In this document: positions 11,001-50,000 of the stretch, in pieces
Layout: every line of letters starts with the position of its first letter
Position numbering within the stretch: position 1 is the stretch's first letter
NCBI GenBank assembly: GCA_036785375.1
Contig: JAWMAR010000005.1
Coordinates: 3,596,001-3,660,000, forward strand
DNA: 64,000 nt
Direction: 5' to 3'
From: Leucoraja ocellata
Taxonomy: Eukaryota
Translations under genes and position numbers: made by a program
Notes under the pieces: generated by a model
The model's database searches: none
Seen by the model: only the letters and a program-made list of their open reading frames with translations
Told to the model about the DNA's origin: nothing

Positions 11001-14000
11001 ACAGTGGCGCTCCCATGCTTTTGCTGCCCTCATCCTTCAAGTTGGTGGAGGTCGTGGGTGCAGAAGGTGCTGTTACAGGAGTGTCAGTGAGTTGATGCAG
11101 CGCATCTTGTGGATGGTACAAACTGCTGCTGCCGTGTATGGGTGGTGGTGGAGTGAGTGAATGGTGGTGGATGGAGGGGGGGGGGGGGGGTGCTATCAAG
11201 GAGGCTGCTATGTCCTTTATGGTGTTGAGCCCCATGAACGTTGTTGAAGTTGCACTCAACCAGGCAAGTGGAGACTATTCCATCACACTCCTGGATTTGA
11301 TCTTTGTAGATGGGGAGTCTTTGGCAAGTTTCTCGCACCAAGATTCCCAGCTTCCAACCTGCTCTTGCAGCTACACTGTGTACGTGGCTTCTCTAGTTCA
11401 GTTTTTCATCAATTGTAAACCCCTCCGGATATTGACAGTGGGGGATTCAGTTATGGCAACACCATTGGATGTCAGGGGTACCAGCTGGATTTCCTCTTGC
11501 TGGATGTCATCATTGCATGGCACTTTGTGTGGCGTGATGGTTATTTGACACCTATCAGCCCAAGCCTAGGTATTGTCCAGATCGTGCTGTATTCTCCACA
11601 CCAGACCGTACACTTGAAAAAAGATCTTTGATGAAGCAGCTGAAGATGGTTGGGCCTCAGAGACCATCTTGAGCAAGTCCAACAGAGACCTCCTGTGAAT
11701 GTTTTGAAGTGCAGCATTGAGACTCCAGTTGGATCCGTTACTAACCACCTCCTTTGGAGGAGATTGCGGCTCACAGGACTAACAGGCACCATCAGAAACT
11801 ACAGGATTTCACTTCCTCAAGGGCTTGGGTGACACGGTGGTGCAGCGGTCGAGTTGTTGCCTCACAGCACCAGAGACTTGGGTTCGATCCTGACTTTGGG
11901 CGCTGTCTGAATGGAGTTTGTACCTTCTCCCCATAACCTGCGTGGGTTTTCTCCGGGTGCATCTGTTGCCTCCCACACTCCAAGGACGTACAGGTTTGTC
12001 GGTTAATTGGCTTCCGTGAAACTCTAAAGTGTCCCCTAGTGTGTGTAGGATAGTGTTAGTGTACGGGGTGATCGCTGATGGTGGGCCAAAGGACCCGTTT
12101 CCGCAATGTGTCTCTTAACTAAACAGAACCAGAGTAATGGGGACATCCATGCACTGATGATCAAGCATGCCGTCAGCGTGAAGGGTCAAGCAGAAGGTAG
12201 TACCTGGTTAACAGACACATCAGCATTAGCCACAGGTGAGGGAGAGCGACAGGCTGTCGGGGAGGAAAGCTCGCTGTTCGTCCCCTCTTCCCCAGACTCC
12301 TCCGTGACAGGTGAGAGGAGGGTGTGACAACGCCCAGCTGTCATCTGATACAAGCCCGGCATAAGCAATACCATTCAATCAGAGAGAGAGGGGGTGGGGT
12401 GGGGGGGGGGGGGGGAGAAAGAGAGAGGTGAGAAAGAGAAGGGAGTAACGTAAATAAAAATCACACAGTAAAGCACAAACCATTGATAACATTTACAATC
12501 TGCCTTCAGCAACATGAAGCAGATACGAATTGTTTTAAAAATCTCTGGCGATAACAACACAGATTGGAGATACAAGGAACTGCAGATGCTGGGATCCTGG
12601 AGCAAAATACCTGCTGGAGGAACTCAGTAGGCCAGGCAGCATCTGCGGAGGGAAATGGATCTATTCTCTCCAGGGATGCTGTCTGCCCATTTGAGTTCCT
12701 CCAGCACTTCGGTGTTTAATATACAAAAAAAAAAGATTAGCATCAGTTCACGCCCACTCCACCCGGGGCAGCAGAATAAAATCAGCCTGGAACGTTATAG
12801 TGTGTAGGAAGGAAGTGAAGGCTCAGGTCAGGCAGCGTCGCTGGAGAGAAGGAACAGGGGACGTTTCGGAGTAGGAGGGAACTGTAGATGCTGGTTTACA
12901 CCGAAGAAAAGACACAAAAAGCTGGAGTGACTCAGCGGGTCAGGCAGCATCTCTAGGGAGATGGAATAGGTGACCTATCGGGTCGTGACTCTTCTTCAGA
13001 CTGAGAGACAGGGGAGAGGGAAACTGGAGGTGGGAAAAGGTTGAGAACAAATCAGAGCCGGCACGGATGACCGCGGAAAGGTGGAGCCCACAATGGTCCA
13101 TTGTTGGCTGTGGAAGAGTTAACTTTGATACGGTTTCCAACAAAGCGCCTTATAAAAAAACATGTGCAAGAAAGAACTGCAGTTGCTGGTTTAAATGCTG
13201 GAGTAACTCAGCGGATGAGACAGCATCTATGGAGAGAAGGAATGGGACCCTTCTTCAGTCTGAAACGTCGCCCATTGCTTCTCTCCAGAGAGATGCTGCC
13301 TCACCCGCTGAGTTACTCCAGCATTTTGTGTCTGCCTTTATAAGAAAACATTGCAATAACAGGGGGGACGGAATCGTAGCCCTGGGGAGCGGGGAGATCC
13401 GGCAGTTTGCTACAAGCGGGAACGCGGGTAGACAATGACATTTGAACATTGCAGCCGGGCCGGGCTGGGGTGGGATCGAGTGGCGGTGAGAGCGGGTTGG
13501 CTTACCATGACCACGGAAGGGTGGGCCGAGTGTGCGTGCAGCGGCTCCCCGTCCAGCTCCTCCAGCCCCTCCACCTCGGTCACCGTCAGCAACATGGTGG
13601 TGTGTTTCGCCTTCATTGTCAACATCTTGCACTTGGTGTTGAGCGCCGCGATTTGCTCCTGATAGCCCTTGATCTTCTGTGCGAAGTCCTGGCCGTGGAT
13701 TAAAAACAGGGGACAACTCAGCAACGCTGTCTCATCTGCCGCCGGGACAACTGAATCTTCGCTGCACCCTCCCCACTCTGTCTCTCTCGCTCTCTCTTTC
13801 TATCTCTCTCTCTTCTCCATTTTCTCTTTCTCTCTCTCTTTTCCCCTCTCTATGTATTTCTCTCTATCTATTTCTATGTCTCCCTATTCCCCTATCCCCT
13901 CTATTTGTCCCTCTCTCTCTTTCCCCCTCTATCTATCTCCCTCTCCCCCTATCTCTCTTTCCCTCTCTCTCCTACAATGAATGAGGTCGTCTCTCTGTCT

Positions 14001-17000
14001 GAAACCAAGCGTCAACAGACAGGCCCCGCCTGCAGGATGTTCAACACAGAGAGAGCGAGAGAGAGGGGAGGGGGTGGCGAGCAGAACATGAGCTGATAAC
14101 ACACAACCTCTGCAGGCACTGTCTGCACAAACAGGAAACGGTTCCACTGGTCTCACCATCAACTCACTGTTAACACATAAAAAAGAGAGGAGGAGGAGGG
14201 GAAGGTTTAGCAAGAGGCGATTTGTGAAGGTGCGTTGCTCACTGGAAGACAGGCGGTCACAGCTGGAAAAACAGCGGTCACAAGGCGCGGAGGCTTTATT
14301 TGGAAGATATATGCAACCAGTGACGGCCCAATATCGAGGCGTGGATGGCCCGGCTCTACTCAATCGCCCTGCGCCTCTCTTATTTCCTCTCTGTGTGTGT
14401 TTTTTGTGTGTGTCTCTCCTCTTTTTTCTCTCCCTCTCTCTGTCGCTTCCTCTCTGCCTCGGTTTGCTGGTGTAGGTTTTACACGCAGTTGCAGGTGGAA
14501 ATCAGCAGAGGCTGAGAGGGCACAGGGTTCCGGCCCCCAGTTCCCTGCCTGGCCGGTTCTCGAGTCGGTGCCGTGGGTCCAGAGCCGGCGGATTCATCAT
14601 GAGTTGGGGGAAAGGCACAGTGAGCCGAGCAGGCGTTGGGGTGGGAGTGGAATGAAATCCCGCAGGAGAGAGAGAGAGAGGTGTGATCCGCACATTTGCA
14701 TCTACTCGAAATGGAGACACAAGGGACTGCAGGTGCTAAAATTCCAACAAAACACAAAGTGTTGGAGGAACTCAGCGGGTCAGGCAGCATCTATACAGGG
14801 GAATGGACAGACCCGAAACGTCGTCTGTCTATTCTTCCCCACAGATGCTGCCTGAGCCGCTGAGTTCCTCCAGCACTTAGTGTCTTGCACCGTTATTCCA
14901 GCATCTGCAGTTTCCTTTTACTGCCGGGAGAATCTCATTGTGTCAGCTAGCAGCTGTGGATAGGAATGGGCAAAATGGTCTGAAGAAGGGTCCCAGAACG
15001 AACCGTCTCCACTTCCCTCCGCAGATGCAGCCTGACCTGCTGTTCCACCAGCTTTTAAGGTGAGGGGGGAAAGATTTAAAAGGAACCTGAGTAATAACTT
15101 TATCACACAGAGCGTGGTGGGTGTGTGGAATGAGCTGCCGGAGGAGGTAGTTGAGGCGGGTAGTATTCCCAACATTAAAAAAACGTTTGGACAGATACAT
15201 GGATGAGACAGGTTTGCCCACACCGACCAAACATGTCCCACCTACACTGGTCCAACTTGCCTTTGCATTGGCCCATATCCCTCTAAACCTGTCCTATCCA
15301 GATATCTGAAGAAGGGTCTCGACCTGGAACGTCGCCCATTCCTTCTCTCCAGAGATGCTGCCTGTCCCGCTGAGTTACTCCAACATTTTGTGTCTACCAG
15401 CCTAAATACCTCCTTAAATGTTGCGATAGTCCCTGCCTCAACCACCTCTTCTGGCAGCTCATTCCATACACCCACCACCCTTTGTGTTAAATTTGCAGTT
15501 TAGACGGATATGGGACAAACGCAGGCAGGAGTGACGAGTGTTGATGGGACATGTTAGTCGGTGTGGGCAAGTTGGGCAGAAAATTTCAATATTCAATCTT
15601 TTATTTCAGATTTTCAGCATCTGTAAGGTTTGTGTTTTGCTTGGATGACAGAAATAAAACATATTGACAAGTAAACACCAAATAACCTACAGTAAGAAGG
15701 TATAAATTATGGATTACAAAGATAAAATTAAAACGTATATTTCATTCAATATTCTCCAAATAAATAAAATCTCTGGTAATGCAATTCCATGTTTGCATTA
15801 CAATTTCAGCATCAAAGATGCTTTAGCAATATCCAAATCTGTGCATTAAATGACTGTGGAATGAACAACTCCTCTGGTAGGTATTTGCAGCAAATGTACC
15901 TGGCATTGATGTGATTGTATCTATGTACAGTATGTATGTGTATATCTGCTGTGTTTAGATATCTGCTGTGTTTAAGTACATGTAACAACCTAGTGGAATT
16001 CATTGCCACAGAAGGCTGTGGAGGCCAAGTCAATAGATATTTTAAAAGCTGACATTGATATAGTTTGATTAGTACGAGTGTCAGCGGCTATGGGGTTGCG
16101 AGAGAAAGATAGATCAGCCATAACTCAGTGGCGGAATCGACTGGATGGGCCGAATGGCTTAATTCTGCTCCTAAAGCGTATTACCTTATATAAACCTAAA
16201 CCTCCATAATCCAGAATGCGAATGTCAGCAAAAGTGGGACTTTGTCTACCACACAGAACTCTGACCATTGCGTGACTTTGAGCACTAATCTATGGTTAGT
16301 GGGAGTCCAAGGTAACAACAGGGGATTTAGAGCCTTGGTTATCAAGGCAAACAACAACCTATCTCTTCAACTAGTCACACGGAAGCACAGTTACTGAGGC
16401 ATGGATGTTAAAATAACAAAGCAATTGTCAATTTCGGCAACAGAGAAATGTAACTATTAGACCAAGATGGAAAAAAACAATTTTAAAGGCTCCACCAGCA
16501 TTTGAACAAGGCTCCAACATACAAATTAACTTAATAATAATAATAATACACTTTATTGTCATTGTAAATACATACAACAAAATTTCAGGCGCACTGCCCG
16601 ACCAGAGCTCCAACGTATCAGATAAATAATAACAAATAACAAAAACAGCAAGAAATCAAGCACAGTTAAGTTGTGCAGGAAGGAACTGCAGATGCTGGTT
16701 TAAACCGAAGGTAGACTCAAAAAGCTGGAGTAACTCAGCGGGACAGGCAGCATCTATGGAGAGAAGGAATGGGTAATGTTTCAGGTCGAGAGTGGCTGAG
16801 GACCCGAAACGTCACCCATCCTTTCTCTCCAAAGATGCTGCGTGTGTGCCTGTCCCACTGAGTTACTCCAGCTTTGTGTCTGTCTACAGTTAATTTGTAG
16901 TCACTAAGATTCAATCAGCAATTCGTTTAGAATGAACTTGCATTGACCTTTTCTCAATTGTTAGGTGTGTAAAAGTAGCAGAACCGTATGTGGCTTCGTG

Positions 17001-20000: not shown

Positions 20001-23000
20001 TTCATACGGTTGGGTTAGAGGCTGCTCGTGGAATATGAGGTGCTGTTCCTCCAATTTGCGTGTGGCCTCACTCTGGTAATGGAGGAATCCCAGGACAGAA
20101 AAGCCAGTATGGGAATGAGGTAGGAGTTAACATGTTTGGCAACCAACACATGGTTATGTTTCTGCTTCACTTGCAACTGAACCCGAGTAAGATTCACCAC
20201 AAGAGCAGCATTTATTGAACTGATCTTTCATGTCTCCTCCCCTTTGTCTCGTGACTGCCGAGGAACCTGGGCAGATGATCTTTTTGTTCTCTGGATGATG
20301 GAACTCATTGGCTGGCCAGGTGCTGTTGAAGGAGCCATGGTGAGGGGATGCAGCGTGCCCATTGTGCCACAGTGGGGAGAGGGGTCGGGCATCTTGTTCA
20401 ATGATATGGGAGGTAAACTAACAAGTGTCACCAGGTTGCATGGCCCACCCAACTCCTGCAGTCCCCAGATGTCCACCCACCCTGACTGGCTCGCAACAGA
20501 GAACAATGCAGCACTGTAGAATCTGACTGCGCCTGATGCAAGCCCACCTGCAGGATGTTGCACTGCTGGATGGCGGTGTGCTGCAGACGACTGGCTTCCT
20601 GCTGCAGCCTCAGCGCCGTCTGGCAGATGGGCAGGTTGGTGACGATTTCTTCCGGGATGCGCAGGGCGGCCTGGAGTTTCTGCACGACCTGTACCTTCTG
20701 CTTGAAGCCCTCCATGTCAGCCAGCAACCTCTAGGCAGAGGAAAAAAAGAACGCACACCGTCACTCCAGAAAGATGCACCGCACCTGAACCATGTGCTGG
20801 ACGCAGATCTGAAAGTAATTCCATAATCAGGCCTCAAAATTCCTGTAAGGGAAGTGTGTAATGGGAGATGGGATTGGACAAAAATTTAGGATGAAGCCTG
20901 ATTTCCATTGGGATCCTAACCCATTCACCTTCATATTAAAGGGCCTGCCATCTATCAGAAGTGTTACTTTGGACAGGATTGGGAACAGACAGGCTTCTCG
21001 ATTACTCACTTTAAACCTCAAAAAGAAAAACAATGGAACTCGTGAACTGGTAAGAATCTCAGTACGTGGGGAAAAGTAATCACCAACAGTATGGATCTAC
21101 AGTGCCATCCTACATTCAGGTTGCTAAGTCACGATGGCACACCTTGCTATGAATAGATCCGCATCGTGGGCAATCAATGGCGGCCTCCATGTTAGGACTA
21201 AAGGGCCTGTCCCACGAGCACGCGACTCCATGAGGCAAGCACAACCTAAGCGACTCCATGCGGCAAGCGCGACCTAACGTGGTCGCTTGAGCCGTACGGC
21301 CTCGCGGGGCCGGTCCCACTTCGATCACTGGAGCCGTATGGATTTGTGCGGAGCTGGACCCGACATCAGGCTCCGGGCTGGGCTCCGAAGAACTGACCAT
21401 GTTTACAAAATTCCGCGCGGCAACAGCCTGCCGGCCCGCAGCCTCCTCGATGCCGTATGTCACGCGTGAACTTCCCGCGGACTTCGCTCGAACTTCATGT
21501 CACTCACTCGACCCCTGCGCGGCCCCTGCTTCTGGTTAGGTCACGCTTGCCGCATGCAGGTGCATGCTGGTGGGACCGGCCCTTTAGGTCGTGCTTGTCG
21601 CATGGAGTCGCATGCTCGGGTAGACAGGCCCTTAACACTCCAGCACACACACACTGATGGGGGAATCACAAGGAATACGGGGACCTGTTTTTTGTTTACA
21701 TGGTGGTAAACGATGTGGTGCAGTTACGTACATCACGGGTTAGTGCCAAAGGAGCTGGTCACATACCCACTCCTACCTAACTTTGTTAATGGATGTTTTG
21801 TCTCTGCAGATCTGTGAAAGCCACATCTAAAGACGTCCACATACAGGCCTTGATGACACAGTGGAAGGCCCAATGAGAACAGTCAACCTTGCCTCAGCTA
21901 ATAACAATTTTGTCAGGCATCATAACATGATGTGTTCATGACCCAAGAGGGAGACTTTTCACCTTGTTTCTTTGAATGGTGGTATTGCTAAGTAAGATCA
22001 GTCATGCAGCGAGATGATGAGGGATTAAAGGGTAATTGTCCTTGGAGGAAACCAAAACATGCAAGATGGTAAAAATCTGAAATAAAAAGAGAAAGCAACG
22101 GAAGCACTGGGTCAGGCAGCATCCGCAGAGAGAAAAGCAAAGCAAATGCTTCAGGTCAATAACCCTCCCTCAAATCTTCGGCCTGAAGAGTTAACTTTGT
22201 TTCTCATTCTGCACACGCTACCAGACCTGCTGGCAGTTTGCAAAACATTCATGATGTTATATGGCGTTTGGGTTGAATAGATTGCTTTCATCGACAATCA
22301 TATGGGGAATTGTAAGGAACATAGATTTAAGATACTTAGCTCAAAATGCAAGAAATATTTTTTTTCGGCAGCAGTGGCTAACTTGAAATGATGGTGGAAG
22401 CAGATTCACTAACAGGAAGTTGACTTAATCCTGAAGGAAGGACGATTTGCAAGTCTGCAGTGGAAGGGCAAGGTGATGTAACCAGCTGGTTCACTCCTTC
22501 AAAGAGCCACTGCAAGCACAAGTTCTAAATGACCAACTTCTGTGCAGTACTGTACATTATCTGGTACCTGTCTTTGGAAGAGTTGCTCCTTTAGGCAGAG
22601 ACGAGCGAGCTCAGGAGAGGTCAGTGTAACTTGGGCCTGCTTCACCATGGCTTGCAGGCTCTTCACTTCGGTCTCAAACTGCTCCATATCCTGTGTGAGG
22701 TGCACAAAGCTGGTCAATGAAGTCAACTCATTAATGAGGTACCTGCGGCACTTGGTGACTGCCGCTCAGCCTGCCGTGATGGGTTTTCACAGCAATCCCT
22801 CCCAACACTTTCAATAGAGAACAAAAGCCGAGGTTCAGTGAAAACCTTTAGTTGCGTGCTAACCAGTCAGTTGAAAAACAATACGTGATTACAATCAAGT
22901 CATCCACAGTGTATAGATACATGAAAAAAGGAATAATGTGAATAACATTTAGTGCAAGATAATGTCCAGTAAAGTCTGATCAAAGATAGTCTGTGGGTCT

Positions 23001-47000: not shown

Positions 47001-50000
47001 CCTCGCTCAGCGAGCCCATCCTCCCGTGCAGGGCGCCCAGCGTCTTCTGCAGCCGCTGCCGCTCGTCCAGGCCCAACCGGGCCAGGATCTTCTCCGCCTC
47101 CGTCGTGGCCGCGCCGTGGGCCAGCTGCTGCGACTCCAGCTCGCTGCAGCTGGCGATGTGGTCCAGCAGCAAGGTCTGGGCCAGCTCTGCCGGCGGGCTG
47201 CACCGCAGGGCCTCGGAGATAAGCCGGGTCTGACCCTCGGCCCAGTCCAGCAGGTCCTCCAGCTTGGACTGGCACTGGCTCAGCTCCTCCAGGGTGGTCA
47301 CGGAGACCTGGATCTTCCTCTCCAGCAGCTCCTCCAGTTGGGCCCACTGTTTCTCATAGTGGCTGGTCTGCTCCTTGATCAGCTCCTTGTCCTCAGGGTT
47401 CAGGCGCTCCATCAGCTTCTGCTTCTGCTCCTTCAGGTCATCCAGCACAAACCTCTGAGCCTGCACCGCGCTCGCCAGCTGCTTCAGGGCTTCCAGGAGC
47501 TCCGCTGTGCTCTCCGCGTCCGTTCTGTTGCAAAGAAACCAAGACAAGAAGGGTCAGAAGTGAGTGCAATTGCACGTAAAGGGCCTGTCCCACAAGCATG
47601 CGACTCCATGCGGCAAGCGCGACCTAAAGGGCCTGTCCTACGAGCATGCGACTCCATGTGGCAAGCACGACCTAACGTGGTCGCTTGAGCCATACGGCCT
47701 CGCGGGGCCAGTCCCACTTCAATCGCCAGAGCCATATGGAGTTGTGCGGAGCTGGTCCCGACATCGCGGGGGGCTCCGAAAAGATGACCGTATTCAAAAA
47801 TTCCGCGCGGCAATGGCCTGCCGGCCCGCAGCCACCTCGACGCTCGAACTTCATGTCACTCACACGACCTCCGCACGGCCCCCGCTTCTGGTTTGGTCGC
47901 GCTTGCCGCATGGAGTCACATGCTCGTGGGACAGGCCCTTTAGTCACAAAGTGCTGGAGTAACTCAGCGGGTCGGGCAGCATCTCTGAAGATAAGGAATA
48001 GGCGACTATTTCAGGTCAGAACCCCTCTTCGACTGCACCTTGTCTGAAGAGCAACCCAAGTTAACCTTCCCTGTCTTAATTAGGTTTTTCGGAACATTTC
48101 ATAATAAACTCACAAGGAAGTACTGGCTCAAAACTACTGCCAAAATCAGCAAAGGCCCACACCTCCCTATCCATGCTCTCATTTCATCAGGAAGAAGATA
48201 TAGAAATCTGAAAACCATGACCACCAGGTTCAAGAATAGCTTCTTCCCAGCAATCATCCGGCTCTTGAACACTACACAACACCAACCTTAGCCATGACCT
48301 TCTATGAACTGTCTTTGATTACACCAAAGAGTTTGGTGTAGTGTTGTCATTATTAGTTTATTAAATTTTTCTATATTATATATTATCTATGACATTGTTT
48401 ACAGGCCTGTTGTGCTGCAAGTAAGGATTTCACTCCTCCATTGTCAGAGTGAGGCCCAGAGTGAGACCCAGTCATAGTGAGGAACAGCACCTCATATTTC
48501 ACTTGGTAGACAAAAATGGTGAAGAAACTCAGCAAGTGAGGCAGCATCTATGGAGCGAAGGAATAGGTGAAGTTTCGGGACGAGACCCTTCTTCAGACTG
48601 AAGAAGGGTCTCGACCCGAAATGTCACCTATTCCTTCGCTCCATAGATGCTGCCTCACCCGCTGAGTTTCTCCAGCATTTTTGTCTACCTTCGATTTTTC
48701 CAGCACCTGCAGTTCTTCCTTAATCATATTTCGCTTGGGTAGTTTACACCACAGCGGTATGAACATTAACTTCTCTATCCTCAGATAGCCCTTGCTTTCT
48801 CTCTCCATCCCCCTTCCCAGTTATCCCACTAGTCTTATTGTCTCTGACTACATTCTATCTTTGTCCCGCCCCCTCCACTGACATCAGTCTGAAGAAGGGT
48901 CTTGACCCGAAACGTCATTCATTCCTTCTCTCCAGAGATGCTGCCTCACCCGTTGAGTTACTCCAGCATTTTGTGTCTATCTTGCAGTGTTTTAATAACC
49001 TGATGGCTGTTGGGAAGAAGCTGCTCCTGAACCCGGGCGTTACAAACTCCGACATATTCTTCCCGATGGCAGGAGTGAAATGAGTGTGTGGCCTGGATGG
49101 TGTGGGTCTCTGATGATGCTGGCTGACTTTTTGAGACGTCGCCTCCTGTAGATCCCTTTGATGGTAGGGAGGTCAGTATCCGTGATGGACTTGGCAGTGC
49201 TCAGAGATAATAGTATGAACAAAGTGTAAGATCTGGAGAGAGGGGATGTGGTGTGGATATTTCCACGAGTGGGAGAGTTCAGGACCAGAGGTCGTAGCCG
49301 CAGAATTAAAGGATGTTCCTTTGGAAAGGAGACGAGGAGGAATTTCTTTGGTCAGAGGGTGGTGAATCTGTGGAATTCATTGCCTCAGAAGGCTAAGGAG
49401 GCCAAGTTAATGGATAGTTTTAAGGCAGAGATTGGTAAATTCTTGATTAGTAATAGTGTCAGGGGTTACGGGGAGAAGGCAGGGGAATGGGGGTGAAGAC
49501 GGAAGGGTAGAGTAGCCATGATTGAATGGCGGAGTAGACTTGGTGGACCGAATGGTGTAATTCTGCTCCTATCACTTATGAACATCTAACTATCCCTCCA
49601 CTCACCTTCCTAGGTCGTCCCATTCTTTGGTGAACTTGTCCAAAAGCACTTCCACGATGCTCATTCGGTCTTGATAATCCCTGGCCCACTGCTGGTCCCG
49701 CTCCCTCATGGAGAGCAAGGTGTTGCTCTGATGGCACAACTCCAACCACTGGTTGCTCAAATGGCCAACCTCTGAGTGCTCGGGTGACTCAAGACCTTCC
49801 GTCAGGTTACTGATCTTCTCAGTGAGTGTTGTAATATTTACCTGCCTGGATTGGAGTTGATGGCCCAAATCCTGAAAATGACAAACACATACAATCCGTT
49901 GCAGTTGGGCGGCACGGTGGCACACAGGTAGAGTTGCTGTCTTACAGCGCCAGAGACCCTGGTTCGATCCTGACTTCGGGTGCTTGTCTGTACAGAGTTT

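Follow-up and report, generated by a model that had tools for sequence, protein, structure and literature searches.

Introduction

The closest described counterpart of the locus reported here is the human nesprin-1 transcript N1-5'E92, an internal 5' UTR of SYNE1 at exon 92 that was verified by PCR and is represented by 13 ESTs (PMC3388047, Table 1). Combined with the 3' end of the giant transcript, it is proposed to yield p346KASH (PMC3388047, supplement), which is described as an isoform of about 345–350 kDa that starts internally at exon 92 and has spectrin repeats and a KASH domain, with no calponin-homology domains (PMC3388047). Nesprin-1 beta-1 and beta-2, alpha-2 and central-rod variants such as p50 and p31 are short isoforms that this part of the gene also yields through internal promoters and alternative ends, but they start or end at other exons (83–90, or near the C-terminus). 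Other short nesprin-1 isoforms are covered in PMC3981789. The element described below was also considered as the start of nesprin-1 beta-2 and dropped, as the beta-2 start falls within the exon 83–90 cluster.

Two further systems resemble other readings of this element. KLNes1g, a nesprin-1 form of the cerebellum, is without a KASH domain (PMC11545860), as would be a protein ended by inclusion of the element as a cassette. KLNes1g is a giant isoform, however, whereas a stop directly after exon 91 would lose about 3,000 residues and is predicted to lead to decay. The TURBS of caliciviruses and influenza B have a stop and a start side by side, like the element, but carry a UGGGA core upstream (PMC5972666).

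The Leucoraja ocellata locus shares its exon with the human isoform and departs from it in the start codon. The human N1-5'E92 UTR runs into exon 92 without a break, and primates and rodents have their annotated start at an ATG at position -12 from that exon (MFPQ). The Leucoraja codon at -12 is ATC, and translation would begin either at an ATG spliced in from a donor 468 nt upstream, giving MDFAQK, or at an internal methionine.

Results

Setting of the element in SYNE1

The window (the whole stretch of 64,000 nucleotides that was analysed, numbered from its first letter) holds central exons of SYNE1 on the minus strand. By translation comparison, the peptide of the 141-nt exon at 12344–12204 (MTAGRCH...VSVNQ) corresponds to that of human exon 93, a 47-aa cassette exon (PMC3388047). 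This match identifies the flanking exons as exon 91 (19074–18931, 144 nt, phase 0, EAVIQ...ISRHK) and exon 92 (13688–13506, 183 nt, phase 0, DFAQK...PSVVM, with an internal ATG at 13625 that opens MLTMK), and it puts the element into intron 91, with exon 92 following 468 nt further on. A degenerate (CT)n/(GA)n array (13776–13971) lies between the element and exon 92.

The 10-nt element occupies 14166–14157 of the minus strand and reads TGAGTTGATG, preceded by aacag and followed by gtgaga. Joined to exon 91, it would begin with TGA and end the protein at ISRHK, with more than 50 exons still downstream of the premature stop. Its last three bases (14159–14157) are an ATG in frame with exon 92, giving M-DFAQK. 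Inclusion of 10 nt between exons 91 and 92 also shifts the frame, so the TGA is not needed for the element to act as a poison exon. A preliminary description of this DNA had given the same position, flanks, phase-0 exon 91, initial TGA and in-frame ATG, and our reading of the sequence confirms all of these, together with an overlapping donor, ACA/GTGAGT, at 14167.

Upstream of the element on the minus strand are GCTAAAC and a pyrimidine run (14211–14179), which together resemble an acceptor, and then a two-codon upstream open reading frame in weak context (ATG TGT TAA, 14178–14170) that ends 11 nt before the main ATG. The predicted overlap site at 14169–14162 combines an acceptor-like AG (14168–14167) with the competing donor, whose intron would start at 14167. 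This donor, if used, would leave out the ATG, and the protein would then start at MLTMK. On the downstream side, the donor GTGAGA (14156–14151) directly follows the ATG.

Two copies of the SYNE1 region lie 431–433 kb apart on a single contig and are about 98% alike including introns. The second copy, at about 4.04–4.08 Mb, has a 100% score over a 2.1-kb exon and an unchanged element. It is probably an uncollapsed haplotype and no evidence that the element is conserved; a recent tandem duplication could also account for it.

Splice-site quality and expectation by chance

On a crude scorer that uses donor frequencies and 27 automatically picked exon boundaries, at least one of which (exon 93) is wrong, the acceptor of the element ranks 23 of 27 and its donor 13 of 27 when set against the exons of the window itself. 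Branch points follow the consensus yUnAy. Counted from the acceptor, matches to it sit at positions -59, -12 and -4, and GCTAAAC (14211–14205), which had been taken for the branch point, does not fit. Of the acceptor anatomy first proposed, the pyrimidine tract stands, as a pure run of 27 nt (14205–14179), and the branch point does not. The nearest UGC, at -46, is 5' of both GCTAAAC and the pyrimidine run, and 3' only of the branch candidate at -59. A UGC between branch point and AG is found in 74–79% of SRRM3/4 microexons and is not strictly required, according to a preprint that also describes regulated microexons as tending to be conserved from shark to mammals (bioRxiv 10.1101/2024.09.17.613571).

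Three other acceptor–donor pairs of equal quality, at most 30 nt apart, turn up in the roughly 520 kb of strand that was scanned, one on the 64-kb antisense strand of the window and two in the 200 kb downstream, read on both strands. About 0.3 such pairs are thus expected per window, and the microexon anatomy alone is not beyond chance; the branch-point filter of the scan for pairs in the window dropped the element itself. Donors of the form ATG/GT with a like score number four in 264 kb antisense and eight in 264 kb sense, which puts the chance of finding one within 1 kb upstream of exon 92 at roughly 2–3%. An ATG/GT donor at a known internal start site therefore probably exceeds chance.

These counts bear on the simplest alternative, in which the element is a chance pseudo-exon lying in unspliced 5' UTR, promoter or intron, and the isoform is an unspliced extension of exon 92 translated from MLTMK. 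The pair count speaks for it and the scarcity of ATG/GT donors near exon 92 against it. The reads and homologues described below also fall on both sides, and we regard this alternative as unlikely overall, though the most serious of the rivals.

RNA reads at the element and at exon 92

The RNA reads are those of a related species whose intron sequence adjoining exon 92 is about 97% alike, and their depth is low. Exon 92 was mapped in runs X1, X13, X17 and X20 and the element in X1, X17, X18 and X19. The two were mapped separately and without the repeat between them, such that a junction from element to exon 92 is visible only as loose ends of at least three reads; the mapping covered these two stretches of the gene. 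Unrelated reads from simple repeats account for the depth at 14038–14085, 14374–14469 and 14662–14685, which was left out of consideration.

At the 5' edge of exon 92, all 15 spliced reads of X20 come straight from exon 91 (agreement 1.0). This is the sole loose end listed there, and no partly fitting read of that run, of 21 in total, is left unexplained. The contig of X1 starts at 13690, without the break expected from a join to the element. In the samples examined, the giant transcript skips the element. The junction from 14157 to 13688 was found in none of the 15 spliced reads of X20 and in no contig path of X1, and no loose end at 14157 or 14166, nor any joint, is among those listed for X1, X17, X18 and X19. 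None of the three junctions named in the preliminary description (18931 to 14166, 14243 to 14166 and 14157 to 13688) appears among the ends and paths listed for these low-depth reads of a related species.

On the far side of exon 92, each loose end listed for its 3' edge includes exon 93 (one contig, and four and six reads), and some shark and teleost models skip exon 93 or start at its first ATG.

The reads bear on the proposal of a poison cassette, in which some tissue would insert the 10 nt between exons 91 and 92, place a stop after ISRHK and lose the giant message to decay or, rarely, make a KASH-less protein. An early stop followed by later junctions triggers nonsense-mediated decay. Decay would itself deplete the reads, and the tissues of the runs are not specified; the splice-site anatomy and the in-frame TGA fit such a cassette, KASH-less and centrally terminated forms of nesprin-1 are known in mammals, and a gene model that started in exons 87–91 and included the element would also be annotated with an MDFAQK start. 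Counter to this, inclusion was seen in none of the 15 spliced reads of X20 and in no X1 contig path, no canonical branch point is present, no UGC lies between the branch region and the AG, and the element is missing in a teleost, though regulated microexons tend to be conserved. We therefore consider the poison cassette first proposed for this site improbable.

Still less can be said for termination and reinitiation, in which translation would end at the TGA and resume at the ATG 4 nt further on, so that one mRNA yields two proteins. The adjacency of stop and start recalls the viral examples and a few cellular ones (PMC5972666). This proposal, also part of the preliminary description, depends on a cassette inclusion that the reads did not show; unlike with TURBS, they give no support to a stop and start on a translated giant mRNA. 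UGGGA is missing from all 144 nt of exon 91, reinitiation after long open reading frames is presumably very rare, it is about 82-fold weaker in the cellular CASQ2 case (PMC5972666), and an internal promoter already accounts for a downstream protein. We judge it very improbable.

Around the element itself, two sense reads in X19 pass unspliced through both of its splice sites, which fits the chance pseudo-exon, as does the lack of any read using either site. In X18, sense reads reach a depth of 2–4 over 14195–14406 and reads cross 14242 unspliced. Depth over 14040–14406 is patchy, has no start peak and could also represent unspliced precursor; no reads fall on 14470–14565 in the four runs.

The intron adjoining exon 92 is covered in four of four runs (depth 8, about 3, 3–4 and 1–2), on the sense strand in X17 and X20, and transcription of the last part of intron 91 (13770–13689) runs on into exon 92 without a break. 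None of the four runs has any depth over the first 66 nt of intron 92. In X17, the unspliced form outnumbers spliced 5' ends of exon 92 by about three to one. The 3' part of intron 91 is therefore transcribed at a low level. The element has no depth in X1 and X17, where the intron adjoining exon 92 has 3–8; this fits a start site nearer exon 92 and counts against the reading that we prefer below.

The same reads bear on whether the element could be a true 10-nt second exon of an internal transcript, with a first exon ending at 14243 and a 76-nt intron (14242–14167) removed. Arguing for this, the acceptor score is high, the 76-nt stretch has GT, a pyrimidine run and AG in order, its removal would delete the upstream ATG at 14178, and the product would likewise begin MDFAQK. 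The joint from 14243 to 14166 would, in turn, create a two-codon open reading frame with a stop that overlaps the main ATG. Against it, the donor at 14242 (CCA/GTGAGC) is weak, scoring 0.85 versus 4.3, reads run unspliced across 14242 (X18) and 14167 (X19), and no joint is listed. A separate second exon seems to us doubtful. With no read using the acceptor side, a longer first exon that has the element at its 3' end is more likely than an exon of 10 nt.

Exon-92 starts in other vertebrates

We compared the locus with 266 homologous proteins, 81 of which have at least 2,800 residues and a complete C-terminus. Among these long KASH-end homologues, 30 of 81 start at exon 92, and they span mammals, lungfish, teleosts, rays and sharks. 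Their starts comprise 12 MFPQ, 4 MFSQ, 2 MYSQ, 8 internal methionines and 4 other short leaders, so that the ATG at -12 (M-F/Y-P/S-Q) serves 18 of the 30, in mammals and lungfish. M-F/C-P/S-Q directly precedes exon 92 in 48 of 74 short homologous clusters as well, where most matches are contig gene calls that show conservation of the ATG and not its use. Chimpanzee and orangutan isoforms begin MFPQELAQK. A white-shark model has MSQQ in the -12 place, inside a longer leader. The -12 ATG is thus kept in tetrapods, lungfish and the white-shark model, and is missing from ray and bamboo-shark models. Both genomic copies of the Leucoraja sequence read ATC CAC GGC CAG before exon 92 (13700–13689, minus strand) and have no ATG at -12.

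Other ends and leaders were seen at this exon: a brain cDNA of macaque stops within intron 92, just past exon 92; one horn-shark model carries an additional Q ahead of exon 92 (tandem acceptor); and in a hare model exon 92 is preceded by a different spliced leader.

The models nearest to Leucoraja are those of the manta ray Mobula birostris. Isoform X10 (XP_072121716.1) has 3,046 residues, starts MDFAQKIKG and ends with the KASH motif, and X11 (XP_072121717.1) has 3,024 residues and starts MLTMK. These are the N-termini of both products predicted here. X10 and X11 are computed gene models of another ray, known here from the protein alone, and we infer rather than observe that their first exons are orthologous to the element. 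An AG acceptor precedes exon 92, so the methionine of MDFAQK cannot come from read-through and needs an upstream spliced exon that ends in ATG. The manta model matches exactly what donor 14156 predicts, which argues against a chance pseudo-exon. On the other side, the MDFAQK start belongs to X10 alone among the 266 proteins, and to one of the eight cartilaginous-fish models that start in exons 91–92 or just upstream, while four ray and shark models (three ray species and a bamboo shark) begin MLT(M/L)K at the internal methionine, as the chance reading would have it.

The exons of the Leucoraja genome cover X10 over 2,963 of its 3,046 residues in 54 exon matches, at 85% mean identity and to the last residue, running from the window to a KASH exon about 140 kb downstream of it. 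This coverage and identity are the highest among the seven homologues tested (mean identity 85% for two Mobula proteins, 82% for Narcine, 79–80% for two sharks and 65% for lungfish and a rodent), which places the gene closest to those of rays.

A metagenome scan returned one locus among 103 pattern matches, on a teleost-like contig. Its intron 91, the sole other intron 91 compared, has no ATG/GT donor and no similarity to the element, which would fit a chance origin in Leucoraja. None of the 266 proteins ends at exon 91, a weak test of the claim that a stop–start microexon splits nesprin-1 in two; together with the absence of the element from all 15 spliced reads, this leaves that claim without support.

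Candidate promoter region

The forward primer of N1-5'E92 translates to CRKMNAT, a peptide that read-through gene calls place about 20 codons ahead of MFPQ; from this we conclude that the human UTR is contiguous with exon 92. The conserved human UTR motif maps 55–80 nt upstream of exon 92 and not at the element. In the window, the primer match at 13766–13755 is weak, since 33 of 533 tiles are as good, and none is as high as that of the teleost-like contig. That contig has its best primer match of 36 tiles 50–70 nt before exon 92 (2432–2451). This non-coding motif, 50–80 nt ahead of exon 92, could be a conserved element of a promoter or UTR, or one that acts in splicing.

A second candidate region, which could hold an internal promoter or the 5' part of a first exon, lies at 14640–14240, just upstream of the element. 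It has a reverse CCAAT at 14332 and a TATA-like CATATAT at 14313 (minus strand), and it contains 26 CpG per 500 nt with an observed/expected ratio of 0.68, against window medians of 12 and 0.455. About ten other stretches of the window equal this CpG score, which does not single the region out. A bacterial promoter scan gave no match, a result without meaning for vertebrate DNA.

Further signals were noted in passing. An AATAAA at 14300 (14305–14295, minus strand) falls inside the candidate promoter and may serve in intronic polyadenylation of a transcript that ends after exon 91. CpG-rich stretches at 21101–21600 and 47501–48000, with observed/expected ratios near 1, exceed the element region; the former is in the intron before exon 20730–20548 and may mark another internal promoter. 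Read-through translations of four homologues keep IG(Q/C) before MFPQ, which would fit a conserved ATTGG (reverse CCAAT) box in amniotes.

Discussion

Taken together, we think it somewhat probable that the element is the 3' end of a minor alternative first exon for the exon-92 isoform of about 350 kDa. The transcript would start from a promoter inside intron 91, towards its 3' end (about 14640–14240), and could be left unspliced or spliced to exon 92 from either of two donors 11 nt apart. Use of the ATG/GTGAGA donor (14157/14156) would produce a protein that begins MDFAQK, with about 3,046 residues, a mass near 350 kDa, no actin-binding domains and the KASH anchor retained. Use of the donor at 14167, or the unspliced form, would lead to the MLTMK start and a protein 22 residues shorter, a pair of products that matches manta X10 and X11. 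The TGA would be mere 5' UTR sequence, and the giant transcript would skip the element. Two steps depend on the manta comparison: the ATG of X10 would come from the orthologue of the Leucoraja element, and donor 14156 would be used in Leucoraja ocellata itself. One suggestion of the preliminary description, an initiator exon for a short KASH-side isoform, is borne out to the extent that MDFAQK is an annotated isoform start in the manta ray and that human has a 5' UTR at exon 92.

A dual role can also be imagined, in which one element serves two transcripts, as the initiator end of the KASH isoform and as a tissue-specific stop cassette of the giant one, gained in rays when the -12 start was lost. 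We consider this combination improbable. If true, one splice choice would trade giant nesprin-1 for a KASH-less N-terminal part plus a 350-kDa anchor.

In the reading that we prefer, an alternative first exon, the element is a lineage variant of a known isoform, set apart by its missing -12 ATG, and no new mechanism is involved. The MDFAQK product is already in RefSeq for the manta ray. In the open-access literature we found no paper on this element or on turnover of the exon-92 start codon, and searches there for a nesprin-1 exon-91 poison exon or microexon, an exon-92 alternative promoter or p346KASH led, among main texts, only to PMC3388047. A switch that splits giant nesprin-1 would matter much more, and it is unsupported here.

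If the first-exon reading is right, it adds evidence that the little-studied exon-92 isoform of about 350 kDa, which in human is only proposed, is common to jawed vertebrates, and it would give studies of SYNE1 disease genetics more reason to consider this isoform. It would also describe a turnover of start codons, in which an ATG in the acceptor region, as in tetrapods, lungfish and a shark model, gave way to a spliced-in ATG in rays.
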